From Pyrinomonadaceae bacterium (GTDB taxonomy: Bacteria; Acidobacteriota; Blastocatellia; Pyrinomonadales; Pyrinomonadaceae), in contig DATFHH010000149.1 in the NCBI GenBank assembly GCA_035248565.1, positions 2,497 through 66,496 of the forward strand: a stretch of 64,000 nt of DNA, read 5' to 3'. Numbering within the stretch: position 1 is the first letter of the stretch; every line of letters starts with the position of its first letter. Below are positions 5,273 to 61,495 of the stretch, in pieces. A model generated the notes under the pieces. That model did no database searches. It was given only the letters and a program-made list of their open reading frames with translations, and was not told the DNA's origin. The translations under genes and the position numbers were made by a program.

Positions 5273-5314
5273 CTCTTCTCCAGGAATCAGTGTTCATCTG
5301 CGCAAATCCGCGGC

Positions 5315-6343
5315 TCAATAAGCCGCCAGCTTGCGAGCCGCATCGACCACGCCCTTCGTTTGCGGCAAATAGTAATCTTCCAGCGGCGGTGAATATGGGA
5401 CCGGCGTATCGATCGAGCCAATGCGTATCACCGGCGCGTCGAGCCATTCAAAACACTCTTCCGCGAGCATCGCCGCTATCTCACCGCCAATGCCGCCAGT
5501 GCGCGAAGCTTCGTGCAGCACGATCGCTTTGCTCGTCTTCTTAACGCTCGCCAGTATCGCCGGTTTGTCGAGTGGCGCGAGCGTTCGCAAGTCCACGACT
5601 TCAACGTCCAAACCTTCTTTCTCGAGCTCTTCGGCAGCATCGAGCGCCGTCAACACCATCGCGCCAAAGGTGATGATGGTCAAATCGCGTCCCGCACGGG
5701 CCACGCGTGCTTTGCCGATCTCGACGATGTAATCATCCGAAGGTAATTCCTCGCGCAGTCGCGGCAGTCGATACAGCTTTTTGTGTTCGAAAAAGAGAAC
5801 CGGATCGGGATCGCGAATCGCGGCTTTGATCAAGCCTTTGGCGTCGTATGCCGTCGCAGGTTCGACAATCTTGAGTCCCGCCGTGTTCAGGAAAAACGCT
5901 TCCGCGTTCAGCGAATGAAACGGACCGGCTCGTACACCTGATCCACATGGGCCACGAAAGACGGCCGGAATTGCCGCGCCCCAACGATAACGACACTTCG
6001 CCGCGTAATTTGTAAGGAGATCAAAACCAGCAGAAATAAAATCGATAAACTGAAATTCGGCGACTGGCCGCATACCCATCAACGCCGCACCACACGCTGC
6101 GCCAACGATTGCGCCTTCGGAGATCGGCGTGTCGATTACGCGTTCTTTGCCAAATTCGTCGAACAAGCCGTCTGTGACTTTGAATGCACCACCGTAAACG
6201 CCCACGTCTTCGCCGATCACAAACACGGTCGGGTCGCGTTCCATCTCTTCCCAGATGCCCTGGCGAATTGCTTCAACCATCGTGGCCTGACCGCCACGTT
6301 CTGGGCGTGCGGATTTGTGTTCTTTTTTGACGGCAGTGGACAT
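5315..6343 (-). CDS. 2-oxoacid dehydrogenase E1 component beta subunit
   Basis: Transketolase-like pyrimidine-binding and C-terminal domains (VIGEDVGVYGGAFKVT..DTPISEGAIVG). ATG at 6343 preferred over the TTG at 6361. Confidence 0.9.
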   Translation of the reverse strand: MSTAVKKEHKSARPERGGQATMVEAIRQGIWEEMERDPTVFVIGEDVGVYGGAFKVTDGLFDEFGKERVIDTPISEGAIVGAACGAALMGMRPVAEFQFIDFISAGFDLLTNYAAKCRYRWGAAIPAVFRGPCGSGVRAGPFHSLNAEAFFLNTAGLKIVEPATAYDAKGLIKAAIRDPDPVLFFEHKKLYRLPRLREELPSDDYIVEIGKARVARAGRDLTIITFGAMVLTALDAAEELEKEGLDVEVVDLRTLAPLDKPAILASVKKTSKAIVLHEASRTGGIGGEIAAMLAEECFEWLDAPVIRIGSIDTPVPYSPPLEDYYLPQTKGVVDAARKLAAY

Positions 6344-6353
6344 CGTTAAATAC

Positions 6354-6770
6354 TCAGGCAACTCGCTTAACTGTTCTGATATCGTCAGGATTCACCAGCA
6401 GCCTTTCTCCTTTGGGATCTATGAACGCATCCAGTCCTTCGAGTGGAAATGCACCTAGCAAGACTTCTGACGTTTGTGGCAACACAACAGCTCTTACAGT
6501 AGTGGCACGATTCTCGAAACGCACCTCCACCGGACCGACGATGTCCACATCCAACCACGTTTCGTCGGCCATTTGGACGGTCCCCCGCCCAAGCACCCGC
6601 AAGTTCAGTCTTTTTTGGACGTCTTTGTTAATAACGAGATCCCACGCGCCACTGTCCACGAGCGCCCTGCAGGTAACTCTCCTTATTTCATCTTCTGGCA
6701 AAAATCCGCGCTGGTTGAGCGCTATATCATCTTCGCTTGTCAGCTCAATGTCCGCATACACATATCCCAT
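6354..6770 (-). CDS. retropepsin-like (clan AA) aspartic protease family protein
   Basis: MGYVYADIEL..CRALVDSGAWDLVI..LLGAFPLEGLDAFIDP. D-S-G-A motif in a ~138-aa protein. Strong GGAGGAAAAGGA SD before ATG 6770. The ORF is also open to ATG 6842. Confidence 0.62.
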   Translation of the reverse strand: MGYVYADIELTSEDDIALNQRGFLPEDEIRRVTCRALVDSGAWDLVINKDVQKRLNLRVLGRGTVQMADETWLDVDIVGPVEVRFENRATTVRAVVLPQTSEVLLGAFPLEGLDAFIDPKGERLLVNPDDIRTVKRVA

Positions 6771-6842
6771 TCCTTTTCCTCCGGTAAGTGAGGTACCAGT
6801 GGTACGTCGTCGATAACTATGGTTAGCTGGTTTGACTGTCAT

Positions 6843-7967
6843 TTATCCCTCCAGTACTTTCGGTCTAAACGCCGGCGGCACGATGTTGTTATCAAACACT
6901 CCATACGCCGCCTGCTCGCCTTCGGGCATCGGTGAAGACTCTGCCCAGGCGCAGTCTTCGTCAATCTCGCGGAGAACGCCCGCCACGATCTCCTCGAGCT
7001 TCTCTTTCGTCGCCAGGTTACATTCAAGCAAGTAACGCTCGTAACGATCGACGGGATCGTTATTCTTCTCCCACCACTCGATCTCACCCGGCGCAACGTA
7101 ACGCTGATCGTCGTGCTCCGCGTGTCCTTTACGACGATAGGTCTTCGCCTCAATCAATACCGCGCCACCGCCGCGTCGTGCATATTCGGCTGCCTGCTTT
7201 GTCACTTCATAACAAGCGACTACATCATTGCCGTCGACGACGTGCGCAGGTATGCCATAACCCGCTGCTTTCTCGGCGAGATCTCGCACGGCGGTTTGTA
7301 AATTCGTCGGCGTTGAATACGCGTAGTGGTTGTACTCGGCAATAACAATCAAAGGAAGTCGCTGCACGGCGGCGAAGTTGAGTCCTTCGTGAAAGGCGCC
7401 CGTGCTCATGCCGCCGTCGCCGATGTAAGCAACGGCAACAAACTTCTTCCTAAGCATGCGACCACCGAGAAGAATTCCACTCATCACGGGAATCATATCG
7501 CCCAGGTGAGAGATTGGACCAATGAATCCCTTCTGTACATCGCCGAAATGAATGTTGAGATCTTTTCCGCCGGAAGGTCCCCAGGCCTTGGCCATGTACT
7601 GCGCAAAGATCTCGCGCGGCCGAACTCCTTTTATGAGTACTGCGCCCAGATCTCTAATCAATGGAGTGACGAAATCCTGCGGCTGGAGTGCATAGGCACT
7701 GCCGACAGCCGTCGCCTCCTGGCCCAAGGAACGAAATACGCCGCCGACGACTTTGGTCTGGCGATAAAGATTCACGAGTCGTTCTTCGACTAATCTAGTG
7801 AGTTTTAGATAGCGATACAGTTCGAGATGCTGCTCTGGTTTGAGTGTGGTCTCGGTCGTACAGCTTAGCGGTTTGCCGTCAACTGCTTTGCGCGGCGCGT
7901 ATTTAGTGCTCACGCGCATCTGGAAACGCGGACGCGGTCGCCGGCGACGTTTGTTGGTTTTTTCCAT
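6843..7967 (-). CDS. 2-oxoacid dehydrogenase E1 component alpha subunit (TPP-dependent)
   Basis: TPP-binding GDGGMSTGAFHEGLNFAAV..IAEYNHYA. ATG 7967 (MEKTNKRRR) preferred, because the upstream ATG at 7985 lies inside repeat A1. Confidence 0.9.
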   Translation of the reverse strand: MEKTNKRRRRPRPRFQMRVSTKYAPRKAVDGKPLSCTTETTLKPEQHLELYRYLKLTRLVEERLVNLYRQTKVVGGVFRSLGQEATAVGSAYALQPQDFVTPLIRDLGAVLIKGVRPREIFAQYMAKAWGPSGGKDLNIHFGDVQKGFIGPISHLGDMIPVMSGILLGGRMLRKKFVAVAYIGDGGMSTGAFHEGLNFAAVQRLPLIVIAEYNHYAYSTPTNLQTAVRDLAEKAAGYGIPAHVVDGNDVVACYEVTKQAAEYARRGGGAVLIEAKTYRRKGHAEHDDQRYVAPGEIEWWEKNNDPVDRYERYLLECNLATKEKLEEIVAGVLREIDEDCAWAESSPMPEGEQAAYGVFDNNIVPPAFRPKVLEG

Positions 7968-7977
7968 AACATGAAGC

Positions 7978-8031
7978 CCATCCACAGATTACGCAGATTT
8001 CTGTTAAGTAATCTGCGTAATCTGTGGATGG
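7978..8031. repeat. Family A palindromic element, copy A1 (complete)
   Basis: CCATCCACAGATTACGCAGATT (7978-7999), 10-nt loop, then AATCTGCGTAATCTGTGGATGG (8010-8031). Perfect 22-bp inverted repeat between the lpdA stop and the E1alpha start. Confidence 0.9.
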
Positions 8032-8033
8032 CT

Positions 8034-9500: not shown

Positions 9501-9531
9501 TCAGCAAACTACAACACAAAAGGACCAGATC

Positions 9532-9902: not shown

Positions 9903-9945
9903 CATCCACAGATTACACCGAAAAATCTGGCGTAATCTGTGGATG
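9903..9945. repeat. Family A element, copy A2 (internally deleted)
   Basis: CATCCACAGATTACACCGAAAAATCTGGCGTAATCTGTGGATG. Outer 14-bp arms are intact and the inner words are degraded. Sits between convergent stops 9900 and 9964. Confidence 0.8.
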
Positions 9946-13326: not shown

Positions 13327-13378
13327 CATCCACAGATTACACAGATTCTATTAAAACAAATCTGCGTAATCTGTGGAT
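13327..13378. repeat. Family A palindromic element, copy A3
   Basis: CATCCACAGATTACACAGATT, loop ctattaaaaca, then AATCTGCGTAATCTGTGGAT. Lies between the two receptor genes. Confidence 0.9.
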
Positions 13379-16950: not shown

Positions 16951-16973
16951 TTAGCCGCGGATAAACGCGGATA
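16951..16973. repeat. Family C tandem-word element, copy C1
   Basis: TTAGCCGCGGATAAACGCGGATA, 7 nt downstream of the thiolase stop. Confidence 0.8.
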
Positions 16974-16979
16974 GTTTCT

Positions 16980-19033: not shown

Positions 19034-19066
19034 AATCCGTCTTCATCCGCGTCATCCGCGGCTTAC
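19034..19066. repeat. Family C element, copy C2
   Basis: AATCCGTCTTCATCCGCGTCATCCGCGGCTTAC. Contains the tyrS stop and abuts the RDD-protein start codon. Confidence 0.85.
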
Positions 19067-20314: not shown

Positions 20315-21184
20315 ATGGCTACTGAAACACCTGACATCAGTCCTCTTAGCAACTGCCGTCTGGCTTTTATCGGTTGCGGCGTGATGGCGGAAGCGATTAT
20401 CGCGGGACTACTGCGCAAGAAGTTGGTTGGTCCTGAACAGATCGTGGGCATTCATCCGCGGCAGGCTCGACGCGAAGAGATGCACGTGAAGTATGGCATC
20501 GAAATGTTTGAGCAGAACCGTGAGGCAGCACTGGCTAGCGCCCCTGAAACACCGGATGCTGGTTCGATGATCATCCTCGCAGTAAAACCGCAACGTCTTC
20601 ATCGCGTGCTGGAAGAACTGAAGGGTTCGCTGCATCCGGAGCAGCTCGTCATTTCAGTTGTTGCCGGTGCGAGGATTGAAACGATTTCCGATCATCTTTT
20701 GCACGCGCCGGTCGTGCGGACGATGCCAAACACGCCCGCACAGATCGGCGAAGGTGTAACTGCGTGGACCGCTAGTCCCGAGGTGAGTGCAAAGCAGGAG
20801 AGTCAGGTTCGTGCAATGCTCGACGCACTAGGCAAGGGTGTACATGTTGAAAACGAACGACAGATTGACATGGCAACCGCGCTGAGCTCCACTGGTCCTA
20901 CGTATATCTTTCTGGTGATGGAAGCGCTGGTTGATGCCGGTGTGCACATGGGCTTCTCGCGACACGTGGCCCAGGAGCTGGTCCATCAAATGATGCTCGG
21001 ATCGGTGTTGTTTGCGATCGAGTCGCACAAGCATCCAGCGGAGTTGCGAAACATGGTGACTTCGCCAGGCGGAACCTCGGCGGAAGCGATTTATCAGATG
21101 GAGAAGGGCAGCTTGCGAACGGTGATGTCGAAGGCTGTTTGGGCAGCGTATCAGCGCGCACAATCCCTCGGGGGAAAGATTTAA
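20315..21184 (+). CDS. proC: pyrroline-5-carboxylate reductase
   Basis: FIGCGVMAEAI Rossmann N-terminus and C-terminal VTSPGGTSAEAI motif. An alternative ATG exists at 20294. Confidence 0.88.
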   Translation: MATETPDISPLSNCRLAFIGCGVMAEAIIAGLLRKKLVGPEQIVGIHPRQARREEMHVKYGIEMFEQNREAALASAPETPDAGSMIILAVKPQRLHRVLEELKGSLHPEQLVISVVAGARIETISDHLLHAPVVRTMPNTPAQIGEGVTAWTASPEVSAKQESQVRAMLDALGKGVHVENERQIDMATALSSTGPTYIFLVMEALVDAGVHMGFSRHVAQELVHQMMLGSVLFAIESHKHPAELRNMVTSPGGTSAEAIYQMEKGSLRTVMSKAVWAAYQRAQSLGGKI

Positions 21185-21213
21185 TCTGCGTCACCGCGTT
21201 CATCCGCGGCTAA
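21181..21213. repeat. Family A/C hybrid element, copy C3
   Basis: TTAATCTGCGTCACCGCGTTCATCCGCGGCTAA. Carries both convergent stop codons (proC TAA 21182-21184, purN TAA 21181-21183 on the minus strand). Confidence 0.85.
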
Positions 21214-21776: not shown

Positions 21777-22808
21777 TTAAATCAACACCTCACGATTCCC
21801 GCTTATCACTTTTCCGATCGTGTAAACAGTCTCGCTACGACCGCGCAGGTCATTCTCGACTGTTTCAGCATCACCGGGCGAGCAGACGATCACGATGCCG
21901 ATTCCCATGTTGAACGTGCGATACATTTCACTGTCAGAAACGTTTCCAAGTCGGCGCAAGAGTTCGAATAGAGGAGGTATGGTCCATGAGTCTCGTTGGA
22001 TCTTCACCGCTGTGCCGTGCGGTAGTATTCGCGGAATGTTGTCAGTCAATCCTCCGCCAGTGATGTGCGCCAGGCCTTTGATTACGCCTTTGTCGAGCAG
22101 ATCGTAGAGGGGTCTGAGATAACTGAGATGCGGCAGCAGCAACGCGTCGCCGGCAGTCATTTCCAGTTCCGGCAGGTGAGTCTGTGGCTCGTATCCTGCA
22201 ACTTCAAAAAAGAGCTTGCGAGCGAGTGAATATCCGTTTGTGTGTAGTCCAGCAGATGGCAAGGCAAGCAGAACATCGCCGGCAGAGATGGTTTTTCCGT
22301 CGATGATTTTTTCTCGATCGACAACGCCGACAATAAAACCTGCAATATCGTATTCACCGTCCTGATAAAAACCCGGCATCTCCGCCGTTTCTCCGCCCAA
22401 CAACACACAACCATTGTCACGACAACCATTCGTCACGCCTTCGACAATGCTCGCCACAACATCGGGCGATAATTTTCCCGTCGCAATGTAGTCGAGAAAG
22501 AATAGTGGTCGCGCGCCCTGGACCAGAATGTCGTTGACGCAATGATTGACGAGATCGCGGCCGACTGTGTTGTGCACGCCTGTCGCAAAAGCGATCTTGA
22601 GTTTCGTGCCGACGCCATCAGCTGACGCAACCAGTACCGGCTGCTTCAGCTTTGGAAATGCGGCGTCAAACATGCCGCCGAAGCTTCCGATCTCGGAAAG
22701 CGTACGATCGTTGAAGGTCTGTCGCGCGAGCTCCTTGATCCTGTCCGTTGCTCGCGTCGCGGCGTCGATGTCAACACCCGCATCGCTGTATGAAATCGGC
22801 TTTTTCAT
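21777..22808 (-). CDS. purM: phosphoribosylformylglycinamidine cyclo-ligase (AIR synthetase)
   Basis: MKKPISYSDAGVDID.., DGVGTK, GGETAEMPG motifs. ATG 22808 lies inside repeat C4. Confidence 0.9.
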   Translation of the reverse strand: MKKPISYSDAGVDIDAATRATDRIKELARQTFNDRTLSEIGSFGGMFDAAFPKLKQPVLVASADGVGTKLKIAFATGVHNTVGRDLVNHCVNDILVQGARPLFFLDYIATGKLSPDVVASIVEGVTNGCRDNGCVLLGGETAEMPGFYQDGEYDIAGFIVGVVDREKIIDGKTISAGDVLLALPSAGLHTNGYSLARKLFFEVAGYEPQTHLPELEMTAGDALLLPHLSYLRPLYDLLDKGVIKGLAHITGGGLTDNIPRILPHGTAVKIQRDSWTIPPLFELLRRLGNVSDSEMYRTFNMGIGIVIVCSPGDAETVENDLRGRSETVYTIGKVISGNREVLI

Positions 22809-22830
22809 CCGTGTTATCCGCGGCTTATTG
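22806..22830. repeat. Family C element, copy C4
   Basis: CATCCGTGTTATCCGCGGCTTATTG. Contains the stop of the ComEC-like gene and the ATG of purM. Confidence 0.8.
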
Positions 22831-23964: not shown

Positions 23965-23990
23965 TCTCGACCCGCCTCAAAAATTTTTTT

Positions 23991-24079
23991 GCCACAAAGA
24001 GGCACAAAAGTCACAAACGATTAATCAAGCTTAACGCTTCATCCCAAATGCATTTGTGCTTTTTGTGCTTCTTTGTGGC
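23991..24079. repeat. Family D inverted repeat, copy D2 (long form)
   Basis: GCCACAAAGAGGCACAAAAGTCACAAA (23991-24017), 33-nt spacer, then CATTTGTGCTTTTTGTGCTTCTTTGTGGC (24051-24079). Abuts the purF stop. Confidence 0.85.
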
Positions 24080-25542: not shown

Positions 25543-25570
25543 CATAGATTTCCGCAGATGAAGACGGATA
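25543..25570. repeat. Family A/C-like three-word element
   Basis: CATAGATTTCCGCAGATGAAGACGGATA. The ATG of the cytochrome c gene (25558) is inside the middle word. Confidence 0.5.
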
Positions 25571-29214: not shown

Positions 29215-30783
29215 ATGTCTCAGGCAAAAAAGGCAATCTCAAAAACCAGCGGGAAAATGGCGGCGCGCAACGCAGCCCGCGCGGCAGTCAAGACTTATCA
29301 AAACTACATCGACGGAAAATGGGTCGGCAGCCAATCAGGTGAGATGTTTGAAAACATCAACCCTGCCGATAACCGCGATGTTGTTGGACGTTTTCCTCTC
29401 TCAACCAGCGACGACGTTAATGCGGCTGTGAATGCCGCGCAAAATGCGTTCGATCGCTGGCGCAACACTCCCGCACCCAAGCGTGCGGAACTGCTGTTTC
29501 GTCTCGGCGAGATCCTGATCCACAACAAAGAACGCTTTACCGCCGACATGACACGCGAAATGGGTAAGGTCTTAAAAGAAGCCGGCGGCGACGTGCAGGA
29601 AGCGATTGACTGCACCTATTACACCGCGGGCGAAGGCCGGCGGCTTCACGGATTTACTTCACCGGCTGAGATGCGCGACAAGTTTGCGATGTGCGTGCGC
29701 CAACCGGTCGGTCTTTGCGGTTTGATTACGCCGTGGAATTTTCCGATGGCGATTCCGTCGTGGAAACTGATTCCAGCATTGATCTGCGGCAACACGGTCG
29801 TCATCAAACCCGCCGAAGACACGCCACTTTCAACCTACAATCTGGTCAAAGCATGCGAAGAAGCCGGCATTCCGCCGGGAGTCGTGAATCTCGTGACCGG
29901 CTATGGTGAAACTGTCGGCGCAGCAATGACCAATCATCCCGCGTTGCGCTTGATCTCATTCACCGGTTCGACTGAAACGGGTCGCATCGTCGCTTCCGCC
30001 TGTGCGGAGCGAAACGCGATCTGTTCGCTCGAGATGGGCGGCAAGAATGCCATCATCGTGATGGACGATGCCGATATTGACTTAGCTGTTGAGGGCGCCA
30101 TTTGGGGCGCCTTTGGTACGTCAGGACAGCGCTGCACTGCGTCGTCGCGGCTGGTGGTCCATAAGAAAGTTTACAAGCAGTTTGTAACGAAGCTGGTTGA
30201 AAACACGAAGGCGCTGCGGGTTGGCGATGGCGCGGATCCGAAGACTGACGTTGGCCCAGTCATAAACGCCGACGCAGTCGAGAAGATCATGGGTTACATC
30301 CGCATCGGACGCGACGATGACGGCGCTAAGCTGGCATGCGGCGGCAAACGACTCTCGCGCGGCGACTATGCCAACGGTCATTTCATCGAACCGACAGTCT
30401 TCGCCGATGCCGCTCCTGACATGCGCGTCTCTCAGGAAGAGATATTTGGACCAGTCACTACTGTCATTCCGGCAAACTCACTCGAAGAAGCGATTCAGAT
30501 CGCCAACGGAGTTCGTTACGGACTCTCGGCTGCCATCTATACGCAAAATGTCAATCGTGCGTTCAAAGCGATGAACGAGATGTACACCGGCATCTTCTAC
30601 GTCAATGCTTCAACCATCGGCGCTGAAGTGCACCTTCCTTTCGGGGGCACCAAAGCGACTGGTAATGGACATCGTGAAGCAGGCACGCAGGTGCTGGACA
30701 TCTTCTCTGAATGGAAGTCTATCTACGTCGACTTCAGTGGCAAGCTGCAACGCGCGCAGATTGATTTAATAGAATCTGCGTAA
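29215..30783 (+). CDS. NAD(P)-dependent aldehyde dehydrogenase family protein
   Basis: [10 protein letters not shown] (catalytic Glu) and [10 protein letters not shown] (catalytic Cys). 522 aa. Substrate not assignable from sequence. Confidence 0.88.
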
Positions 30784-30794
30784 TCTGTGGATGG
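30755..30794. repeat. Family A element, copy A4 (left outer arm missing)
   Basis: CGCAGATT, loop gatttaatag, then AATCTGCGTAATCTGTGGATGG. Encodes the last residues and stops of both convergent genes. Confidence 0.8.
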
Positions 30795-31304: not shown

Positions 31305-31335
31305 GTTATCCGCTCAATCCGTGTTTCATCTGCGG
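31305..31335. repeat. Family A/C-like three-word element
   Basis: GTTATCCGCTCAATCCGTGTTTCATCTGCGG, just downstream of the asnB-like stop (31345). Confidence 0.55.
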
Positions 31336-31344
31336 CAAAAGTCC

Positions 31345-33282: not shown

Positions 33283-33303
33283 AATCTGTGTAATCTGTGG
33301 ATG
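33283..33303. repeat. Family A half element, copy A5
   Basis: AATCTGTGTAATCTGTGGATG, exactly fills the gap between the oxidoreductase stop (33306) and the asnB-like ATG (33282). Confidence 0.75.
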
Positions 33304-35461: not shown

Positions 35462-35495
35462 TTATCCGCGTTCATCCGCGGTCATCCGCGGCTAA
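35462..35495. repeat. Family C element, copy C5 (three words)
   Basis: TTATCCGCGTTCATCCGCGGTCATCCGCGGCTAA. Contains the glycosyltransferase stop (35472). Confidence 0.9.
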
Positions 35496-36668
35496 AACTC
35501 TTTGGATCAACTCACTAACCCACTCCGCGCGCGCGTCCCACGTGCCCGAAGCGACCGCCGCCTGTCGTCGCGCGGCCGCGTTCGCATCCGTGTCATGAAG
35601 GGCTTCATCGACTAACCGAATAAAGTCATCTCGCGTGCGGGCGATCCTGAGAATGTCGCGCATCGGTTCGTACTCCGGCAACGGCGAGATGACGACTGGC
35701 TTTCCCGTCGCGAGGTACTCCCGAACTTTAATCGCCGAGCCGTAACTCGTAAAAGACTGCTCAGTTTCCCACGGCAACACGCAAACGTCGAATCCCGCAG
35801 CGTAAGACGGAAGATCGTTATAAGCAACGGGTGGCAGAAAATGAACATTCGGTAAGGCCTCAATGTCGAGACCACGCGAGCGATTGCCGATAAATATCCA
35901 TTGCCACTCAGGACGCTCCTGAGAGGCGCGCTTGATTAATTCCTGGTCCACCAACCACGGCTCAATCGCTCCAAAGTAACCCAAACGAGGTCGCGGCAGC
36001 CTCATGATCTCAGGCGCTACAGCTCTTTCTGCGACACGTCGCCAGTGTTCAAAATCAACACCTTGCTCGAGTAAATGCGATCGTTCACATCCGCGCGTCG
36101 CTTCCGTAAAAAGTTTTCGACCCGAATAGAAAATCAGATCCGCGGCGTCGATGGCGCCTTCGTGAAGCTTGCGTATCAATGCCGGATCCGTAGCATGATC
36201 CATCGTGTTTGCATCATACTTGTCTGAGACTTGATAGACCACCATCGATTCATCGAGCGTGCCGATCATATCGGCAGCGGTGGGAATAGCGATCCACAGA
36301 ATCGGCTTTTTCAGACCACGGCTCCGCGCGAGACGTTTGATTTGCGCTCCGATCAAACGCCGGTTCATCGTTCGCGCTGCTGCCGTGCCGAAAAAAGGTA
36401 AACTGGCGGGCGAGACAACGGTGATACCTTCGTCTGTTTGTCGCGCGAGTTTGGAATAACTGCCGAGCTTGCGCTTGATTCGCGGCAGCAGATCTTTGTG
36501 CGCCAGACCAGGGAGACCCATCGAGATGGAGTTGACGAAGATCACTTTGTTTCCGGCGCGCGCAAACTTGCGCATCAGGTGTGCCTTGGAGTGCGGGTGG
36601 TGATACCACCAGTCTTCTCCACCAAAACAGATTATCGATTGGTCGCGCAGCATTCGATCCGTAAGCAT
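35472..36668 (-). CDS. glycosyltransferase (GT1/GT4-like, TuaH-like N-terminus)
   Basis: IICFGGEDWWYHHPHSKAHL.. N-terminus and C-terminal GT-B region (..REYLATGKPVVISPL..). ATG 36668 lies in repeat C6. Confidence 0.72.
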   Translation of the reverse strand: MLTDRMLRDQSIICFGGEDWWYHHPHSKAHLMRKFARAGNKVIFVNSISMGLPGLAHKDLLPRIKRKLGSYSKLARQTDEGITVVSPASLPFFGTAAARTMNRRLIGAQIKRLARSRGLKKPILWIAIPTAADMIGTLDESMVVYQVSDKYDANTMDHATDPALIRKLHEGAIDAADLIFYSGRKLFTEATRGCERSHLLEQGVDFEHWRRVAERAVAPEIMRLPRPRLGYFGAIEPWLVDQELIKRASQERPEWQWIFIGNRSRGLDIEALPNVHFLPPVAYNDLPSYAAGFDVCVLPWETEQSFTSYGSAIKVREYLATGKPVVISPLPEYEPMRDILRIARTRDDFIRLVDEALHDTDANAAARRQAAVASGTWDARAEWVSELIQRVLAADDRG

Positions 36669-36687
36669 CCACGTTAATCCGCGGCCC
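36666..36687. repeat. Family C element, copy C6
   Basis: CATCCACGTTAATCCGCGGCCC. Holds the methyltransferase stop (36674) and the glycosyltransferase ATG (36668). Confidence 0.7.
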
Positions 36688-37465: not shown

Positions 37466-37489
37466 TTAGCCGCGGATGACGCGGATTAA
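37466..37489. repeat. Family C element, copy C7 (opposite orientation to C5)
   Basis: TTAGCCGCGGATGACGCGGATTAA. Encodes ..IRVIRG* of the upstream membrane protein. Confidence 0.9.
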
Positions 37490-41269: not shown

Positions 41270-42516
41270 CCACGCAAACTCCCCAGCACAAAGACTTCTG
41301 TGAACGAACGTCCGGTGCTGGTGTGAAAGTGCAAAGCGACCAGTGCGAAGATCGCAGCGTAACTGATCGTCGAAGCGATCGCAGCACCCTGTGCGCCGAA
41401 GCGCGGCACTAGCCCAAAAACCAGAATCAGGTTCAACACTAACGTAATAACCCAATAGATCGGGATCGCACGAGGCAGTCCGAGAGCGTTGAAGTGTTGG
41501 ACCAGCACCGATTCCAAACCCATGAGATAAACGCCGGGCAAGAGGATCAGCAGCAACTTAGTCGCGTCGGCGAACACGTTGCCGTACACCAGCGGCAATA
41601 ACAGGCTCAACGGCACTGCAGCCAGGCAACAGATAAACATGATCAGCGTCGTGTAGCGTGTGACCAAACAAGTCGTCTCACCACGCGCGTCCTGTTCGGC
41701 AGTAACCCTCGGAAACAGTAATGTTGCAATCACACCCGGCAACAGCATCAACAAAAGCGCGAATTGCGAAGCGACACTGTAAACACCGGCTTCGGCGGCC
41801 CCACGAAAATGATTGACGACGAGCAAGTCGGCGCGGAGGATGATCGCACCCGCCAGAATCGAAATATGAAACTTGATGCCGTAGGTGATCATGCGTCGCA
41901 GCAGAGTCACGTCAGCTCGCCATTGCGATTGCGCGAGGTTCTTGGCGGAAGCCACCAGCAGCGAACCGATAACGATACTGACCAAAATGCTGGCGACGGT
42001 GTTGAACGTCACCAGCGTTTTTAGTCCGCTGCTGAGAACGATCAGAGCCAGCAGCGCATTGATCAGTACAAACGATTGTCCCGCGAGATCGAGCAGATTG
42101 AACTCTTTTATTTTTCCAACCGCGAGCAGAATGTTTAGCCCAATCAATGCGATCAGTTGAAAAGGAATTGAGATCGCCGCGATGCGAATGAGTTCAGGTG
42201 AGACGAAGCCAAACCAGTCGGCACAAAGCGAGGCCATTACACTTAACGCGATTGCGAGAATCGAGCCGATGACGAGAGCAAAAATCAGCGAGTTGATCGC
42301 GGCAGAGCGGAAGCGCGCCTGGTCCTGCGCGATGAAATAAGTATTCGAAGAAGGAAGACCAAAACTGCCGAGCTGAACGATTGTTGCCACTGCGACGTTG
42401 ATGACGGCCAACTGACCGACTCCCTCAGCCCCAAGCCATCGCGCCACGATGATGCCCGCGGCCACGCTGTTGAAGATCATTAGCAGACGTGTCGCGAAGG
42501 TCCATGCAACTTTCAT
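41266..42516 (-). CDS. wzx: Wzx-type polysaccharide flippase (MOP superfamily)
   Basis: ~416 aa with about 12-14 TM helices, typical polysaccharide-biosynthesis (PST) protein pattern. ATG 42516 lies in the left arm of repeat A6. Confidence 0.78.
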   Translation of the reverse strand: MKVAWTFATRLLMIFNSVAAGIIVARWLGAEGVGQLAVINVAVATIVQLGSFGLPSSNTYFIAQDQARFRSAAINSLIFALVIGSILAIALSVMASLCADWFGFVSPELIRIAAISIPFQLIALIGLNILLAVGKIKEFNLLDLAGQSFVLINALLALIVLSSGLKTLVTFNTVASILVSIVIGSLLVASAKNLAQSQWRADVTLLRRMITYGIKFHISILAGAIILRADLLVVNHFRGAAEAGVYSVASQFALLLMLLPGVIATLLFPRVTAEQDARGETTCLVTRYTTLIMFICCLAAVPLSLLLPLVYGNVFADATKLLLILLPGVYLMGLESVLVQHFNALGLPRAIPIYWVITLVLNLILVFGLVPRFGAQGAAIASTISYAAIFALVALHFHTSTGRSFTEVFVLGSLRG

Positions 42517-42555
42517 CCACAGATTACGCAGATTTAATCTGTGTAATCTGTGGAT
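42514..42555. repeat. Family A palindromic element, copy A6 (almost no loop)
   Basis: CATCCACAGATTACGCAGATT, t, then AATCTGTGTAATCTGTGGAT. Overlaps the asnB-like stop (42524) and the wzx start. Confidence 0.9.
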
Positions 42556-46366: not shown

Positions 46367-46388
46367 CAATGGAGTGTTTGAATCGGGC

Positions 46389-46482
46389 GTCTCCTTGGAG
46401 TGCGGCGACCTGGCGCCGCTTTGTTATCGATCAAGCGTGACCGATATTAAAGCGGCGCCAGGCCGCCGCACTCCAAGGAGAC
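46389..46482. repeat. Family B element, copy B2
   Basis: GTCTCCTTGGAGTGCGGCGACCTGGCGCCGCTTT (46389-46422), 26-nt spacer, then AAAGCGGCGCCAGGCCGCCGCACTCCAAGGAGAC (46449-46482). One arm mismatch. The wecB stop is inside the right arm. Confidence 0.92.
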
Positions 46483-47586: not shown

Positions 47587-47598
47587 TGATCGTTTGTA

Positions 47599-47627
47599 GC
47601 CACAGATGACGCGGATGAAGACAGATT
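47599..47627. repeat. Family A/C hybrid three-word element, copy C10
   Basis: GCCACAGATGACGCGGATGAAGACAGATT, between the dehydrogenase stop (47629) and the wecB ATG (47586). Confidence 0.75.
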
Positions 47628-47628
47628 T

Positions 47629-48963
47629 CTACAGCCGTATGATGCGTGCCTTGCTCTGGCGCCGCACATCACCATTCAACGCGTTGCGTGTGTCGACGAT
47701 CACCGATGCCAGCGAACACACGTGTTTGTAGTCGATGCCGCTGTGGTCGGTGACAATAATCACGCAATCGGCCGACTTTAACTCTTCATCGGTGAGCGGC
47801 ACGGAGCTGATCGGCTCATGCGTCGCCTCTGTATGCGCGTCGTCAAACCGCAGCTCGCTCACAAATGGATCGTGATAACGAACGTTCGCGCCTTTCGCAC
47901 GGAGCCGGTCGATGATCGAGAGCGCCGGACTCTCACGCACGTCGTTGATGTCGCGCTTGTATGCCACACCAAGCAGCAATACATTCGATCCTTTCATCGA
48001 CTTGCACTCGTCGTTGAGCCCGTCAGAAACGAGTTGGACGACGTGCTCTGGCATGCGCGAATTGACTTCTTCAGCAAGACTGATGAAACGCGAATCAAAA
48101 CCGTGCTGCCTCGCCTTCCACGACAAATAGTGCGGATCGAGTGGGATGCAGTGGCCGCCAATCCCAGGGCCCGGATAAAAAGGCATAAAACCAAACGGCT
48201 TGGTAGCAGCCGCGCGGATTACTTCCCACGTATCGATATTGAGCGCATAACAAAGCCGCGCCATCTCGTTGGCCATGCCGATGTTGACCGCGCGAAAAGT
48301 GTTCTCCAAAAGCTTCGCGGCTTCCGCAACACGCGCCGAGCTGACAGCGTGAACGTCGTTGACGATCTGTGAATACAAGTGCGCCGCAACCTCAGTGGAG
48401 TCGTCTGTCACGCCACCGACGACCTTCGGAATGTTGTGCGTCATAAACTGAGGATTGCCTGGATCGACGCGTTCGGGTGAAAACGCCAGCAGGAAATCCT
48501 GGTCGAGTTTCAAGCCGGTCTGCTCGAACATCGGCAGCAGCACTTCATCGGTTGTGCCGGGATAAGTGGTCGACTCCAGAATTACCAGATGGCCGCGACG
48601 AAGTCGCTTCGTGATCTGCTCGGCCGCAGCGAAGATGTAAGAGACGTCCGGTTCTTTTGTTTTGCGCAGCGGCGTGGGCACGCAGATGATGATCGCGTCG
48701 CACTCGCTGAGATGACTGAAATCTGTTGTGGCGCGCAGACGCTTCGCATCGACAACTTGCTTCAATCGCTGCGACGACACGTCGCCGATGTAAGAGACGC
48801 CTTCATTGATGCTGCCGGCTTTGGTTTCGTCTACTTCAAAGCCGGTGCCCGTGAAACCTTTGGAGGCAAACTCGACTATCAAAGGCAAACCAACATATCC
48901 AAGACCAATCACGCCGACGTGCGCCTGTTTGTTTGTTATTCGACTAATCAGTTCGTTCTTCAT
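47629..48963 (-). CDS. UDP-N-acetyl-hexosamine (ManNAc/GlcNAc) 6-dehydrogenase, WecC/WbpA-like
   Basis: VIGLGYVGLPL Rossmann fold and catalytic GIGGHCIPLDP. Adjacent to wecB. ATG 48963 (MKNELISRI). Confidence 0.87.
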   Translation of the reverse strand: MKNELISRITNKQAHVGVIGLGYVGLPLIVEFASKGFTGTGFEVDETKAGSINEGVSYIGDVSSQRLKQVVDAKRLRATTDFSHLSECDAIIICVPTPLRKTKEPDVSYIFAAAEQITKRLRRGHLVILESTTYPGTTDEVLLPMFEQTGLKLDQDFLLAFSPERVDPGNPQFMTHNIPKVVGGVTDDSTEVAAHLYSQIVNDVHAVSSARVAEAAKLLENTFRAVNIGMANEMARLCYALNIDTWEVIRAAATKPFGFMPFYPGPGIGGHCIPLDPHYLSWKARQHGFDSRFISLAEEVNSRMPEHVVQLVSDGLNDECKSMKGSNVLLLGVAYKRDINDVRESPALSIIDRLRAKGANVRYHDPFVSELRFDDAHTEATHEPISSVPLTDEELKSADCVIIVTDHSGIDYKHVCSLASVIVDTRNALNGDVRRQSKARIIRL

Positions 48964-48967
48964 AGAA

Positions 48968-49030
48968 CCATCCACAGATTACGCAGATTATACATTACAC
49001 AGATCTGTGAAATCTGTGTAATCTGTGGAT
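48968..49030. repeat. Family A element, copy A7 (nested/composite)
   Basis: CCATCCACAGATTACGCAGATT (48968-48989), then an inner ATTACACAGATCTGTGA with 12-nt palindrome CACAGATCTGTG (48998-49009), then AATCTGTGTAATCTGTGGAT (49011-49030). Sits in a divergent intergenic region. Confidence 0.9.
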
Positions 49031-49034: not shown

Positions 49035-50552
49035 ATGAGCCGGGAACCCCCCAAACTCGTCCGTGGCCTGAGCCTGCTGGACGCAACGATGATCGTCGTG
49101 GGCTCGATGATCGGTTCCGGCATCTTTATCACCTCGGCGGAATCATCGCGGCTGGTGGGCTCACCTGGCTGGCTAATCGCAGCCTGGGCTCTCGGCGGCG
49201 TGCTCACGATCACCGGCGCACTGTGTTGTGCGGAGCTGGCAGCGATGTGGCCGCGCGCCGGCGGCCAATACGTCTTTCTGCGAGAAGCTTATGGTCCATC
49301 GGTCGGATTTCTCTTCGGCTGGGGCCTGTTTCTGATTATTCAATCAGGCACCATTGCGGCGGTCGCGGTCGCTTTTGCGAATTTCACTGGCGCGCTCACT
49401 GATTTGATCTCAGCCGAACGTTATCTCATTCCACCACTCGTACTGATAAAACCATTCACGATCGGCCAACTCTCATTCAATGGTTACGCGTTGAGTCTGT
49501 CAACCCAGCAACTTCTCGCAGTTGTAATGATTCTCTTTCTCACTATTATCAACACACGCGGACTGCAAACCGGCAAGATTATTCAGAACACATTTACTTT
49601 TACAAAAACCGCCGCGCTGGTCGGATTGATTTTGATCGGACTGATTCTCGGCTGGAATCACGGCAGTGCGGCTTACACGTCGTCGTGGTGGCAACCGTGG
49701 CAGAACGGTTGGAGACCTTCCGCATCGGAGGTTTGGTTTAATCCGGCGGGCCAGGGTCTGCTCGTTCTGGCGCTCTTGATGTTGCTTGGCCGCGCGATGG
49801 TTGGGCCACTCTTCGCGCAATCCGCCTGGAACAACGTGACGTTCACGGCCGGCGAAGTGCGAGAGCCCGGTAAGAACTTACCGCGCGCGTTGTTGCTCGG
49901 TTGTGGTCTGGTAGTGACTTTGTATCTGCTGGCGAACCTGGCTTACGTCGTGACGCTGCCCTTAGCGGGCATTCAGAACGCGCCGCAGAATCGAGTTGCG
50001 ACAGCGGTGATGCAAGCAGTGCTTGGCCCAAGCGGCGCCATCATCATGGCGATCGCGATCATGATCTCCACATTTGGTTGTAATAATGGACTGATACTCG
50101 CCGGCGCGCGTGTTTACTTTGCCATGGCGAGAGATGGGCTCTTCTTCAAACGAGTGGACAGCGTAAACAAGCATCATGTGCCGGCCGTGGCACTGATTGC
50201 ACAGGGCGTGTGGGCGGCGTTTCTGGTGCTTCCTCGCACCGTAACGAGCAATCGACAGACAGGCGCGTACACCTTTGGCAACGTTTACACGCAGTTGCTG
50301 GAGTACATCGTTTCGGCGGATCTGATCTTTTACGTGTTGATGGTGGGAGCGGTGATAGTGATGCGCCGCAAAGCGCCGGAGATTGAGCGGCCGTATCGAA
50401 CGTTTGGATATCCGATCGTGCCGCTGATTTATCTCTTGATTGCGGGATTGTTTATTGTTGATTTAGCGGTGCTGGCGCCGTCCACGTCGGGGATTGGGTA
50501 TTTGCTGGTGGCTACAGGCGTTCCGATCTATTTCGTTTGGAGCCGCGGATAA
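49035..50552 (+). CDS. APC superfamily amino acid permease
   Basis: 505 aa with about 12 TM helices. N-terminal GSMIGSGIF signature of amino acid/polyamine/organocation transporters. Confidence 0.85.
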   Translation: MSREPPKLVRGLSLLDATMIVVGSMIGSGIFITSAESSRLVGSPGWLIAAWALGGVLTITGALCCAELAAMWPRAGGQYVFLREAYGPSVGFLFGWGLFLIIQSGTIAAVAVAFANFTGALTDLISAERYLIPPLVLIKPFTIGQLSFNGYALSLSTQQLLAVVMILFLTIINTRGLQTGKIIQNTFTFTKTAALVGLILIGLILGWNHGSAAYTSSWWQPWQNGWRPSASEVWFNPAGQGLLVLALLMLLGRAMVGPLFAQSAWNNVTFTAGEVREPGKNLPRALLLGCGLVVTLYLLANLAYVVTLPLAGIQNAPQNRVATAVMQAVLGPSGAIIMAIAIMISTFGCNNGLILAGARVYFAMARDGLFFKRVDSVNKHHVPAVALIAQGVWAAFLVLPRTVTSNRQTGAYTFGNVYTQLLEYIVSADLIFYVLMVGAVIVMRRKAPEIERPYRTFGYPIVPLIYLLIAGLFIVDLAVLAPSTSGIGYLLVATGVPIYFVWSRG

Positions 50553-50572
50553 ACGCGGATGACGCGGATTAT
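50541..50572. repeat. Family C element, copy C11 (three words)
   Basis: AGCCGCGGATAAACGCGGATGACGCGGATTAT. Holds both convergent stops (permease TAA 50550-50552, polymerase TAA 50569-50571 on the minus strand). An inverted word TCATCCGCGA follows at 50582-50591. Confidence 0.88.
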
Positions 50573-52349: not shown

Positions 52350-52399
52350 GCCATCCACAGATTACACAGATTAATCAATCTGCGTAATCTGCGGATGGC
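52350..52399. repeat. Family A palindromic element, copy A8
   Basis: GCCATCCACAGATTACACAGATT, aatc, then AATCTGCGTAATCTGCGGATGGC (two A/G differences between arms). Contains the MFS stop (52375). Confidence 0.9.
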
Positions 52400-54000: not shown

Positions 54001-54098
54001 GCGCCTCCTTGGAGTGCGGCGGCCTGGCGCCGCTTTGGCCTCGATCAAGCGCCATCGATAACAAAGCGGCGTCAAGCCGCCGCACTCCAAGGAGGCGC
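54001..54098. repeat. Family B element, copy B3 (inverted orientation relative to B1/B2)
   Basis: GCGCCTCCTTGGAGTGCGGCGGCCTGGCGCCGCTTTG (54001-54037), 24-nt spacer (reverse complement resembles the B1 spacer), then CAAAGCGGCGTCAAGCCGCCGCACTCCAAGGAGGCGC (54062-54098). A single CCATCCGCACA word lies just outside at 53986-53996. Confidence 0.92.
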
Positions 54099-56393: not shown

Positions 56394-57302
56394 TTATCGA
56401 CCCCAGCGCAGTTTGTCGCGCAACACGTCGAAATAGTTTCGATTCATCGGTTGAATGAGATTGAAAGTCGTGCGGCTTTTGCGAATCGTCACTTTATCTT
56501 CCGGTTCGAGGGGAAATCCAACTTGTCCGTCGAGCGTCAATGCAACCTCTTCATGCTCAGTCTTCAGCAACAACTCGATCTCGGCATTGTCCGGCACGAC
56601 GATGGGACGGTTGGAAAGCGTAAACGGACAAATCGGAGTTATGACCACTGCATTCATTGAGGGAAAGATTACTGGTCCACCGGCGGAGAGGTTGTAAGCG
56701 GTCGAGCCTGTGGGCGTTGAAACGATCAAGCCGTCAGCGCGGAACGAATTAACAAAGTGGCGGTTAAGATAAGCTTCGATCTCGATGATGCGGGCCAGCG
56801 CTGATTTGTTGATTACAACATCGTTGAGAACACGATTACTTGTAATGACGATGTCGCCGCGACGAAGCTCCACCGACAGCATGACGCGTTTATCGAGTTG
56901 GTAATTGCCCGCGAGGATCGACTCGAGCGCGCTGTAAAGTTCTTCAATGCGAAACTCGGCGAGATAGCCGAGGCCGCCGTAGTTGACTCCGAGTACCGGC
57001 ACTTCCTGATCGCCGATCGTCCGCGCGGTGGCGATCATCGTTCCGTCGCCGCCGAGCACGAGGATCAAATCGACCTTGTCGGCGAGTTTGTCCTCTTGAA
57101 CTTCATCGACCGGACAGCCGGTCTGGTGCTCGATGCGTTCGCGCTCGATTTCCGGACCACCGACGAGCTGAATGTTTCGCTCGGCAAGCCACACGACCAG
57201 CTCGCAGATCGTCTTCAGGGCGTCAGGTTGGTGCGGTTTAAGGACGATGCCTATCCGCGTGATTGGCGACATTTGCGTTGCAGGATACGCATCCGTGTTC
57301 AT
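56394..57302 (-). CDS. nadK: NAD+ kinase
   Basis: LVLGGDGTMI motif, NxGxLGFL-like NYGGLGYL, C-terminal beta-sandwich domain. ATGA overlap with the tlyA stop. Confidence 0.9.
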   Translation of the reverse strand: MNTDAYPATQMSPITRIGIVLKPHQPDALKTICELVVWLAERNIQLVGGPEIERERIEHQTGCPVDEVQEDKLADKVDLILVLGGDGTMIATARTIGDQEVPVLGVNYGGLGYLAEFRIEELYSALESILAGNYQLDKRVMLSVELRRGDIVITSNRVLNDVVINKSALARIIEIEAYLNRHFVNSFRADGLIVSTPTGSTAYNLSAGGPVIFPSMNAVVITPICPFTLSNRPIVVPDNAEIELLLKTEHEEVALTLDGQVGFPLEPEDKVTIRKSRTTFNLIQPMNRNYFDVLRDKLRWGR

Positions 57303-57322
57303 CCGCGCAAATCCGCGGCTAA
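57289..57322. repeat. Family C element, copy C13 (three words)
   Basis: GCATCCGTGTTCATCCGCGCAAATCCGCGGCTAA. Spans the tlyA stop / nadK start overlap. Confidence 0.88.
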
Positions 57323-58057: not shown

Positions 58058-58097
58058 AGGACTTACAGGATAATCTTTATCATGTAAATCCTGGTAC

Positions 58098-59232: not shown

Positions 59233-59247
59233 TTAGCCGCGGCTTAA
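59233..59247. repeat. Family C core (near-palindromic single unit), copy C14
   Basis: TTAGCCGCGGCTTAA. Encodes ..SRG* of dxs on the minus strand. Confidence 0.6.
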
Positions 59248-61155: not shown

Positions 61156-61214
61156 CTTGGCCGCATTGTACTCCAATCGCTAAGTTTTGCTAACGCGTAG
61201 CGACTTCATGATGC

Positions 61215-61243
61215 AAAGTACTCTACTGTGCTTCGATTGTCAA
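61215..61243 (-). promoter_or_regulatory. possible dxs promoter
   Basis: Minus strand reads TTGACA-17 nt-TACTTT. The -35 is the mirror half of the palindrome shared with the tRNA promoter. The -10 is weak. Confidence 0.3.
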
Positions 61244-61249
61244 TTAAAT

Positions 61250-61277
61250 TTGACAATCCGCGACTGCCGACTAGAAT
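61250..61277 (+). promoter_or_regulatory. sigma70-type promoter of tRNA-Ser
   Basis: TTGACA (61250-61255), 16 nt, TAGAAT (61272-61277), about 24 nt upstream of the mature tRNA 5' end. Confidence 0.7.
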
Positions 61278-61300
61278 TGGTCTTCGCCGAATTGCGGCAC

Positions 61301-61391
61301 GGAGATGTGGCCGAGTGGCTGAAGGCGGCGGTTTGCTAAACCGTTAAGGGTCAAAAGCCCTTCACAGGTTCGAATCCTGTCATCTCCGCCA
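61301..61391 (+). tRNA. tRNA-Ser (anticodon GCU), class II with long variable arm, CCA encoded
   Basis: Acceptor GGAGATG/CATCTCC. Anticodon stem GCGGT/ACCGT with loop TTGCTAA. Variable arm AAGGG..CCCTT. T-arm ACAGG-TTCGAAT-CCTGT. G discriminator plus CCA. Confidence 0.9.
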
Positions 61392-61396
61392 GAAAC

Positions 61397-61495
61397 CCAC
61401 CAAAAAAAAGCACAAAAAGCTCGAATGATTTTCAGGTGGATCTTTTTCGCCTTTTGTGCTTTTTTGTGGCTTGAAGTTTGTGCCTCTTTGTGGCC
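61397..61495. repeat. Family D composite, copy D5 (inverted repeat plus extra half copy)
   Basis: CCACCAAAAAAAAGCACAAAAAGC (61397-61420), then GCCTTTTGTGCTTTTTTGTGGC (61449-61470), plus GTTTGTGCCTCTTTGTGGCC (61476-61495). Ends 1 nt before the gltX ATG. Confidence 0.8.

Follow-up and report, generated by a model that had tools for sequence, protein, structure and literature searches.

Why are so many gene junctions in a 64,000-nucleotide (nt) stretch of DNA from a Pyrinomonadaceae bacterium (the whole of which we call the window; 55% G+C) occupied by short arrays of tandem 9-10-nt words, and do the three word types recognized there (A, C, and D) belong together, as a first-pass annotation had proposed? 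In what follows, an array of such words is called an arm and two inverted arms are called a hairpin. We found that A, C, and D are united by one word grammar whose scale goes far beyond the window and that the same arrays bracket the genes of GxxExxY proteins, which are predicted nucleases, in many phyla. We favor, with a probability of about 60%, a reading in which all three types are hairpins and solo arms without a gene that belong to a single superfamily of small elements lying between genes, that of the GxxExxY cassettes.

The copies cited in the first-pass annotation (5293-5317, 21181-21213, 25543-25570, 47599-47627, and 52350-52399) all read back as described. The degenerate two-word pattern CCRCRGATKAYRCRGAT, with at most one mismatch, matches the window 19 times against an expectation of 0.02. 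Chains of at least two C-R-C-R-R-A cores at 9-10-nt spacing number 35, compared with 4.4 ± 2.2 in 100 dinucleotide shuffles, and there are 7 chains of at least three cores, compared with 0.03. When arrays were anchored on three GAT triplets alone (9-10-nt period), the free upstream positions were still C (63%), A/G (75%), C (66%), and A/G (71%); hence, the shared core is neither an effect of composition nor an artifact of the search pattern, and the worry voiced in the annotation that base composition alone might produce it can be set aside. The C-R-C-R-R-A core is common to the arrays, by shuffle enrichment as well as in the GAT-anchored arrays, and the A/G alternation is real at both R positions. 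CpG decay was considered as its sole source, since both R are the CpG positions of CCGCGG, yet globally the first R is G in 61-73% of cases and the second is A in 92%, an asymmetry that CpG decay cannot entirely account for.

The canonical arm consists of three tandem 9-10-nt words with the core C-R-C-N-R-A (e.g., CRCAGATT, CGCGGATG, or CACAAAGA), and the arms of the window follow this core with two or three words at 9-10-nt spacing. The tandem-word architecture proposed earlier stands, with three words rather than two as the canonical number: in the unbiased sample of arms flanking GxxExxY genes described below, 45 of the 57 have three words, spaced by 9 nt (57 times) or 10 nt (46 times). The outer end of the arm is sharp, (T)TA[T/G]CC, and paired arms face their outer ends outward. 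In about 200 kb of Pyrinomonadaceae DNA, 35 arms consist of CAGAT words alone and 9 of CGGAT words alone, and 9-10 arms mix the two. Since mixed arms are as frequent as pure C arms, A grades into C without a break. No core position is less constrained than the one by which they differ, which can be A, G, C, or T in the arrays flanking GxxExxY genes; such A/G alternatives at weakly constrained core positions make A and C drifting sublineages of one grammar. Hybrid copies had been invoked to link all three types, and A-C intermediates are indeed frequent, but D hybrid arms are not, D words being seldom mixed with GAT words in the same arm within this ~200 kb. What D shares with A and C is the period, the three-word arm, the outer end (A/T)GCC, the inverted pairing, the junctions, and the gene association. 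The proposal of one evolving superfamily, or one recognition grammar, is borne out by A-, C-, and D-like arrays flanking independently sampled GxxExxY genes and by the swapping of the three types at orthologous junctions of close relatives.

These arrays are widely spread beyond the source genome. Used as a two-word search pattern against IMG/VR and species-representative genomes, ATCCRCRGATKAYRCRGATT matches at least 79 stretches in viral contigs and more than 119 in the genomes, from more than 10 phyla (all minimum values); by our own arithmetic, the random expectation is ~70 matches in 596 Gb. Among the matches listed, to which all genome counts refer, record titles name Verrucomicrobiota, Planctomycetota, Acidobacteriota, Chloroflexota, Pseudomonadota, Desulfobacterota (as Desulfobacteraceae or Deltaproteobacteria), Nitrospirota, Candidatus Methylomirabilia, Armatimonadota, Gemmatimonadota, Spirochaetota, Lentisphaerota (an Oligosphaera isolate), Bacteroidota (Prevotellaceae), Candidatus Desantisbacteria, and two archaeal metagenome-assembled genomes (MAGs; binning unchecked). 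Variant usage is skewed, with 4 of the 64 possible variants making up 122 of the 150 genome arms, and many genome matches are inverted pairs, which identifies them as homologous elements and not as chance matches. The commonest A-type variant globally is CCGCAG. Genome arms have a sharp outer boundary between ttt and ATCC and a weaker third word beyond the two set by the pattern, and the loops between paired arms cover a continuous range from 0 to >150 nt. In viral contigs (L002-L080, from IMG/VR), A-type arms or hairpins stand between phage structural genes. Longer interiors are often nested inverted arrays of other words (TCGGATT, GGAATCGG, CTGCTTT, CACGAAGA, and CAAAGTA) and have a modular look, as in the following elements:

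L099, 2373-2583
L104, ~5006-5100
L120, ~7650-7744
L161, 1992-2254
L194, ~3570-3667

At three loci selected by their arms, the arms enclose an open reading frame (ORF) of ~125 amino acids (aa) that codes for a GxxExxY protein (TIGR04256, E = 2e-41; PF13366 PDDEXK_3, E = 3e-38). A noncircular test was based on 80 metagenome loci chosen by protein similarity alone, 61 of them with sufficient flank, and on 84 shifted control positions in the same loci. Inverted flanks (local alignment score of ≥30) were found at 42 of the 61 GxxExxY loci versus none of the 84 controls, and arrays of an exact 5-mer repeated three times at 8-11-nt spacing were found at 49 of the former versus 8 of the latter. The commonest layout is arm(+)-gene-arm(-), with 6-80 nt between the upstream arm and the gene and 2-30 nt between the alignable part of the gene and the downstream arm, which often encodes the tail of the gene (e.g., ..NLRESA or ..NLRKSA). 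The complete cassette found in other genomes (arm, GxxExxY gene of ~125 aa, and inverted arm) measures ~0.5 kb. Its flanking words are of the types CRCAGATT (A), CGCGGATG and CGCAGATG (C), and CGCCAAGA, CGCAAAGG, and CACAAAGA (D-like), besides CACGGATT, CACGAATT, CGCAGAGA, ACAGAATT, and ACGAAACA. The word type tracks the phylogeny of the protein, with the nearest protein neighbor having the same type in 51 of 59 cases versus 20 expected. Loci of the GAT type range in G+C content from 35 to 69%. The GxxExxY gene and its arms evolve as a unit.

Over ~1.6 Mb of arm-selected loci, arm pairs of different genomes repeatedly enclose one ORF family only, GxxExxY. The other ORFs between the arm pairs of these loci are ordinary host or phage genes, among which neither a transposase nor a RAYT was detected. 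At one locus (L188, 4273-4440), A-type arms enclose a GxxExxY gene that has lost an internal part (profile positions 85-117 follow directly on 2-14), clearly a miniature derivative of the cassette formed by deletion. Cultured bacteria also carry the association. Sphingomonas parapaucimobilis YK209 has a GxxExxY cassette with arms of CGCGAAG words precisely between fabD and fabG (L295; NZ_CP155749.1, 482518-483641); the record, 880 kb long and from a plasmid collection, is a complete replicon of a cultured isolate, and the cassette would make a handy experimental system. In Gemmatirosa kalamazoonensis, a three-word CGCGGAT hairpin adjoins a GxxExxY gene.

The AlphaFold2 model of the GxxExxY protein (pLDDT 93, pTM 0.86) has Cas4 SSO0001 as its top PDB match in a fold search (4ic1; E = 8e-5, TM 0.61), followed by lambda exonuclease, MGME1, RecE, and the nuclease domains of AddAB/AdnAB; a sequence search of PDB with the GxxExxY profile gave no significant match. 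The D..ExK triad (D67, E77, and K79 in L196/P0003 numbering) and the QxxxY motif (Q91 and Y95) are invariant or almost so, which, together with the Cas4-like model, fits an active RecB/Cas4-type PD-(D/E)XK nuclease. The protein is a predicted Cas4/RecB-like nuclease of this fold with intact catalytic motifs. Its family is very large (PF13366/TIGR04256; 27,784 clusters at 50% identity), and a survey of PD-(D/E)XK proteins lists it as of unknown function and subject to many horizontal transfers (PMC3424549).

Within the window, 28 of the 35 chains are located in intergenic DNA or at gene ends, and by the strict chain criterion, 19 of the 49 gene junctions are occupied. A-type words (CCACAGATT followed by ACRCAGATT) mostly form inverted pairs with loops of 1-11 nt, giving six hairpins and two solo arms, while D-type words (CCACAAAGAG followed by GCACAAAG) form three hairpins and one solo arm; one more inverted pair is mixed. 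C-type words (GCCGCGGATG followed by ACGCGGAT and so on) are nearly always found as solo arms of two or three words. As RNA, the hairpins have a very high predicted stability (-26 to -47 kcal/mol, z -8 to -13). The individual elements are the following (strand is given for single arms; hairpins are unstranded):

1244..1284, D-type hairpin (CCACAAAGAGGCACAAAG), between convergent genes
3787..3838, mixed hairpin with the words CACAGAT, CGCAGAT, and CACGGAT
5294..5317, minus strand, C/A hybrid solo arm (GCCGCGGATTTGCGCAGATGA)
7978..8031, A-type hairpin, both arms CCACAGATT followed by ACGCAGATT; -41 kcal/mol, z -10.6
9903..9945, A-type hairpin between convergent genes, its inner words degenerate
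13328..13378, A-type hairpin starting 14 nt past the stop of the upstream TonB-receptor-like gene
16951..16974, plus strand, C-type solo arm, antisense relative to the flanking genes
19034..19066, minus strand, C-type solo arm of three words, between tyrS and the RDD gene
21183..21213, minus strand, C/A hybrid solo arm at the convergent ends of purN and the P5CR gene
22806..22827, minus strand, C-type arm of two words forming the entire MBL-purM spacer (TAA-GCCGCGGATAACACGG-ATG)
23991..24079, D-type hairpin separating purF from the MBL gene, with arms of three words each and a loop of 35 nt
25543..25569, plus strand, hybrid arm (CATAGAT, CGCAGAT, and GACGGAT) that extends into the beginning of the cytochrome c gene
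30772..30794, minus strand, A-type solo arm between convergent genes
31306..31338, minus strand, hybrid solo arm of three words (CCGCAGATG, ACACGGATT, and GAGCGGATA)
33283..33303, minus strand, A-type solo arm forming the whole stop-to-start gap (TGA-AACATCCACAGATTACACAGATT-ATG) before an asparagine-synthase-family gene (Pfam PF00733)
35462..35495, minus strand, C-type solo arm of three words between a stop codon and the next ATG
36656..36687, minus strand, degenerate C-type arm
37466..37489, plus strand, C-type arm, antisense to a gene whose last residues and stop it encodes (..LIRVIRG*)
42515..42555, A-type hairpin that overlaps the end of a gene; 1-nt loop
44483..44515, minus strand, C-type solo arm of three words between a stop codon and the next ATG
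47597..47627, plus strand, A/C hybrid arm of three words (CCACAGATG, ACGCGGATG, and AAGACAGATT)
48970..49030, A-type hairpin with three words in its right arm, between divergent genes, ending 4 nt ahead of the ATG at 49035
50540..50571, plus strand, C-type arm of three words at convergent gene ends
52350..52399, A-type hairpin, one arm having CCACAG, the other CCGCAG; -46.8 kcal/mol
57290..57322, minus strand, C-type arm of three words at the junction of overlapping genes
61397..61469, D-type hairpin directly 3' of tRNA-Ser
61474..61495, minus strand, D-type solo arm (GGCCACAAAGAGGCACAAAC)

Solo arms often occupy all of the DNA from a stop codon to the start codon that follows, and between codirectional genes, they are found ~12 times in the sense orientation versus ~3 times in antisense. 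The outward end of C and D arms, TTAGCC, reads as TAG on one strand and TAA on the other, and a stop triplet lies ≤6 nt outside 18 of 38 arms versus a background of 12%. A-type arms of the window (e.g., at 7978, 42512, and 52350) end in CATCC, giving an outward ATG on the opposite strand; the global A-type flank is TTT followed by ATCC. Read-through of the words into repeated tripeptides had been correctly predicted, and database proteins carry such tails (e.g., ..NLRESAQSAD and IRVICG..IRVIRV), as well as arm-encoded heads such as the N terminus of P0030, IRVICG..IRVIRV. The mechanical ORF starts at 7983-7985 and 48973-48975 are GTG triplets within arms (CTGTGG), so the 5' ends of ORFs 6843-7985 and 47629-48975 are probably overextended. 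Between 61301 and 61495, a tRNA-Ser(GCT) is followed at ≤6 nt by a D-type hairpin and then by the extra D solo arm, and the called ORF start at 61425, which falls inside this hairpin, is probably wrong. A fourth family (B) of ~100-nt palindromes, GCGCCTCCTTGGAGTGCGGCGGC...GCCGCCGCACTCCAAGGAGG, is found at 27416-27514, 46379-46492, 54001-54098, and 63662-63737; its arms are 79-91% complementary, lack the tandem-word build, and have AAGGAGG (Shine-Dalgarno-like) in each outer end. No repeat polymorphism was found between the window and a near-identical ENA metagenome contig (99.99%). The PurM of the window is 100% identical to a protein annotated as Pyrinomonadaceae, and the architecture of the TonB receptor also suits this origin.

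Four relatives (L281-L284), with PurM proteins 87-92% identical to that of the window, keep the gene order cytochrome c / purF-(hypothetical)-MBL-purM-purN / P5CR / tyrS-RDD-thiolase, and their junctions are occupied as follows:

tyrS-RDD: C solo arm in the window and in L281; full CACGGAT hairpin in L283; D-type hairpin in L282; decayed arm in L284
MBL-purM: C arm in the window; empty in L281 and L282, where the genes overlap at GTGA; D-like hairpins in L283 and L284
purN / P5CR: hybrid solo arm in the window; full C/A hybrid hairpin in L281; CAGGATT arm in L282; CACAGAT/CACGGAT arm in L283; 225-nt element with ACAGGATT/ACAGAATT arms in L284
RDD-thiolase: empty in the window; D-type hairpins in L281 and L284

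A/C-type and D-type elements can stand in for each other at one junction, and since the same junction is empty or differently filled among relatives, the turnover of elements is fast. Solo arms are plausibly half-deleted hairpins. Three of the relatives have an extra gene of 179-214 aa without a Pfam hit between purF and MBL (L282, 2796-3335; L283, 2681-3292; and L284, 2645-3289); the window (23965-24079) and L281 do not have it, and the gap in the window holds a D-type hairpin.

A similar design is found around genes of another family. PF05635 four-helix-bundle genes (23S rRNA intervening sequence protein or Avd-like) have inverted flanks of tandem purine-rich words (AGGGATT and AGGGAGG) in L131 (432-935), L285, L287, L288, L289, L291, and L292. 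In three loci, the PF05635 cassette lies between CRISPR-like repeats (~36-37 nt, ending in CTTGATGAATAAAGGATTGCGAC, with a 74-79-nt period), i.e., at the "spacer" position:

L289, CRISPR-like repeats at 26-293 and 991-1033
L291, CRISPR-like repeats at 1-360 and 848-1060
L292, CRISPR-like repeats at 41-98, 547-571, and 608-665

If A, C, and D are gene-less relatives of the GxxExxY cassette, the copies of the window would be miniature or orphan derivatives of it, an origin observed for the one deleted cassette elsewhere and one that we infer for the rest. The repeated words would serve for recognition, most likely by the nuclease of the cassette, which would act both in cis and in trans, and copies would accumulate and turn over at gene junctions. 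Their tolerance there may lie in the codons that they bring, since the outer end has stops on both strands (TTAGCC/GGCTAA) and the words carry ATG (GGATGA), so that an element can replace an overlapping stop/start junction. The whole would be analogous in function to REPIN/RAYT but would differ from it in the enzyme and in the design of the repeats. Judged from the arrays and the genes that they enclose, our results point to the nuclease of the cassette, rather than to a nucleoid-associated protein, as the candidate reader of the words. A broader proposal, to which we would give somewhat less than even odds, is that GxxExxY genes and three-word inverted arrays make up an unrecognized mobile or selfish class driven by a Cas4/RecB-type nuclease, the PD-(D/E)XK counterpart of REPIN-RAYT. 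If so, this class would span more than 10 bacterial phyla, archaeal MAGs (binning unchecked), and phage contigs, would seed genomes with very many gene-less hairpins and solo arms that reshape operon junctions through the stop and start codons they bring, and would account for a huge orphan protein family and for the ubiquitous "NLRNLW / IRVIRG / PQITQI" pseudo-peptides in annotations.

Several observations weigh against the derivation of the repeats from cassettes. There is no GxxExxY gene or remnant in the window or in the ~200 kb of Pyrinomonadaceae DNA searched, gene-bearing copies are a small minority among all arms, and the protein-based scan found a GxxExxY gene at only one viral locus, although viral contigs bear arms. 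The covariation of protein and word could be explained by co-inheritance alone, and since the unrelated PF05635 genes share the cassette design with other words, the enclosed protein need not be the reader. No target-site duplication was detected in 128 pairs, with direct-repeat lengths equal to those of the shuffled control, and the palindromic extension of the flanks did not go beyond chance. The sense bias of solo arms hints at selection for a host-level role.

The first of the rival explanations is that arms and hairpins are host signals in RNA or DNA acting in cis (terminators, attenuators, 3'-end stabilizers, RNase III sites, or intercistronic translation signals), kept by selection and shared or exploited by the cassettes. 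The stability of the hairpins is in keeping with such signals, as are the proximity to stops (59 of the 150 genome arms are ≤40 nt from the stop of a long ORF), the solo arms that often span the exact distance from a stop to the next ATG, mostly in sense, and the presence of arms among phage genes of contigs in which no GxxExxY gene was detected. However, no consistent U-tract was found in the flanks and no match in Rfam, a solo arm cannot form a hairpin, both orientations occur, also between divergent genes, and the same junction is empty in some relatives and filled by other types in others. The two arms of a cassette differ mostly by transversions at linker positions, without a G.U or compensatory signature: changes compatible with G.U pairing are not in excess on either strand (39, 39, and 106), nor are transitions. 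It is the word core that is kept and not the pairing, which argues for recognition of the words over selection of an RNA helix; selection on an RNA hairpin was rejected on these grounds. We consider a host role unlikely as the explanation of these repeats. It is also unlikely, although a shade less so, that another agent makes the arrays (an unlinked RAYT-like HUH or other transposase, or slippage, template switching, or gene conversion) and that GxxExxY and four-helix-bundle genes are selfish passengers homing into the loops of arm pairs. Two unrelated small genes with the same architecture, the vast excess of gene-less over gene-bearing pairs, the lack of a detected target-site duplication, and the extra hairpins that often adjoin cassettes would all suit passengers, and a nuclease targeting a multicopy repeat would also yield covariation of protein and word. 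Against this, no other enzyme family is recurrently enclosed by or beside arms in the ~1.6 Mb of arm-selected loci, the features of RAYT-type REP sequences (GTAG tag and self-palindromic unit) were not found, and the miniature at L188 derives clearly from a cassette. Neither of these two explanations contradicts the conclusion that A, C, and D form one superfamily.

Two further rivals concern the words themselves. Binding sites of a chromosomal DNA-binding or nucleoid-associated protein, about one helical turn apart, would agree with the 9-10-bp period, the three sites per arm, and the conserved word cores with variable linkers. Yet identical 20-mers occur across phyla, patchily, in high copy, and with presence or absence at orthologous sites, which fits mobile DNA better than a regulon, and likeness to DnaA boxes fails, the 9-mer TTATCCACA being found at only 1 of 14 A-type arm ends of the window, which also disposes of a DnaA-box cluster; we hold this explanation to be quite improbable. 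The shortness of the words is all that speaks for an artifact of chance or base composition, or for three unrelated repeat families, an explanation refuted for practical purposes by the shuffle controls, the A-C hybrids, the shared gene association, and the shared junctions. Among known signals, a CRISPR array (28-37-nt repeats with unique spacers) does not match contiguous 9-10-mers that are dispersed with two or three per arm. The stems are long and stable, yet intrinsic terminators were discarded because no consistent T-run was seen in flanks read directly, a dedicated scan not having been made. CsrA (GGA) sites, mimicry of the Shine-Dalgarno or anti-Shine-Dalgarno sequence, and RNase E sites were also considered, but GGA is absent from A-type words, and there is little complementarity to the 16S 3' end. 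An Rfam scan at both the gathering score and a permissive E-value retrieved only the tRNA-Ser, the subthreshold matches of microRNA models on hairpins being spurious.

In literature searches on repeat strings, phyla, GxxExxY/PF13366, PF05635, Cas4-like plus REPIN/MITE, and STRR/SDR, neither these arrays nor their link with GxxExxY were found described. If the link holds, it would provide the first functional context for PF13366/TIGR04256, a very large uncharacterized family, and would explain short intergenic repeats at a large share of the junctions of soil and sediment bacteria of many phyla. The arms also have practical consequences, since they burden annotations with false start codons, C-terminal tails that are not real, and spurious small ORFs, and they break assemblies. 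The stop and start codons that they bring to operon junctions enable them to rewire translational coupling. Both the nuclease and the 9-10-nt word code are open to direct in vitro tests.

Some known systems share part of this design. Mycobacterial interspersed repetitive units (MIRUs) are repeats in the intercistronic gaps of operons, with stop and start codons that overlap those of their neighbors. They resemble the present elements in their intercistronic site and in the codons supplied, but are tandem units of 40-100 bp, lineage restricted, and without inverted arms or an associated nuclease gene. The intervening sequences of 23S rRNA consist of a small PF05635 ORF bounded by inverted repeats and are excised by RNase III; they too are selfish-looking small ORFs inside inverted repeats able to form a long stem, but the elements of the window lie between protein genes and not in rRNA, and the words differ. 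The STRR heptamer arrays and small dispersed repeats of cyanobacteria, reportedly described by Mazel et al. in 1990 and Elhai et al. in 2008, are said to be short intergenic tandem words, mobile looking, in hairpin contexts, and with an unknown mobilizing enzyme. They may be relatives, although their words and periods are different, and we know of no link between them and GxxExxY genes.

MITEs (miniature inverted-repeat transposable elements), which are internal-deletion derivatives of insertion sequences or transposons, have terminal inverted repeats, subterminal words that look like binding sites, a variable interior, and gene-less miniatures, and L188 provides one internal-deletion derivative here as well. 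Unlike MITEs, the elements described here have no target-site duplication and no DDE transposase, many copies are of only 40-60 nt (almost nothing but the arms), and solo arms are frequent. The nearest known system is that of the REP/REPIN elements with RAYT (TnpA-REP) genes, or REPtrons (Bertels & Rainey 2011, PMC3116915; Di Nocera et al. 2013, PMC3733652). Both systems have short extragenic repeats in high copy, as singlets and as inverted hairpin doublets, and in both, inverted repeats flank a small single gene whose protein covaries with the repeat sequence, gene-less copies vastly exceed gene copies, and target-site duplications are lacking. However, RAYT is an HUH/Y1 transposase, whereas the protein here is PF13366, a predicted Cas4/RecB-like PD-(D/E)XK nuclease and not Y1_Tnp; REP sequences are self-palindromic units of 20-40 nt with a GTAG or CGTC tag, whereas the arms consist of three direct 9-10-nt words without a tag; and here the same words are found across many phyla. 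If the link with GxxExxY genes holds, these elements would be a second and mechanistically distinct case, besides RAYT/REPIN, of a single gene with thousands of miniature repeats.

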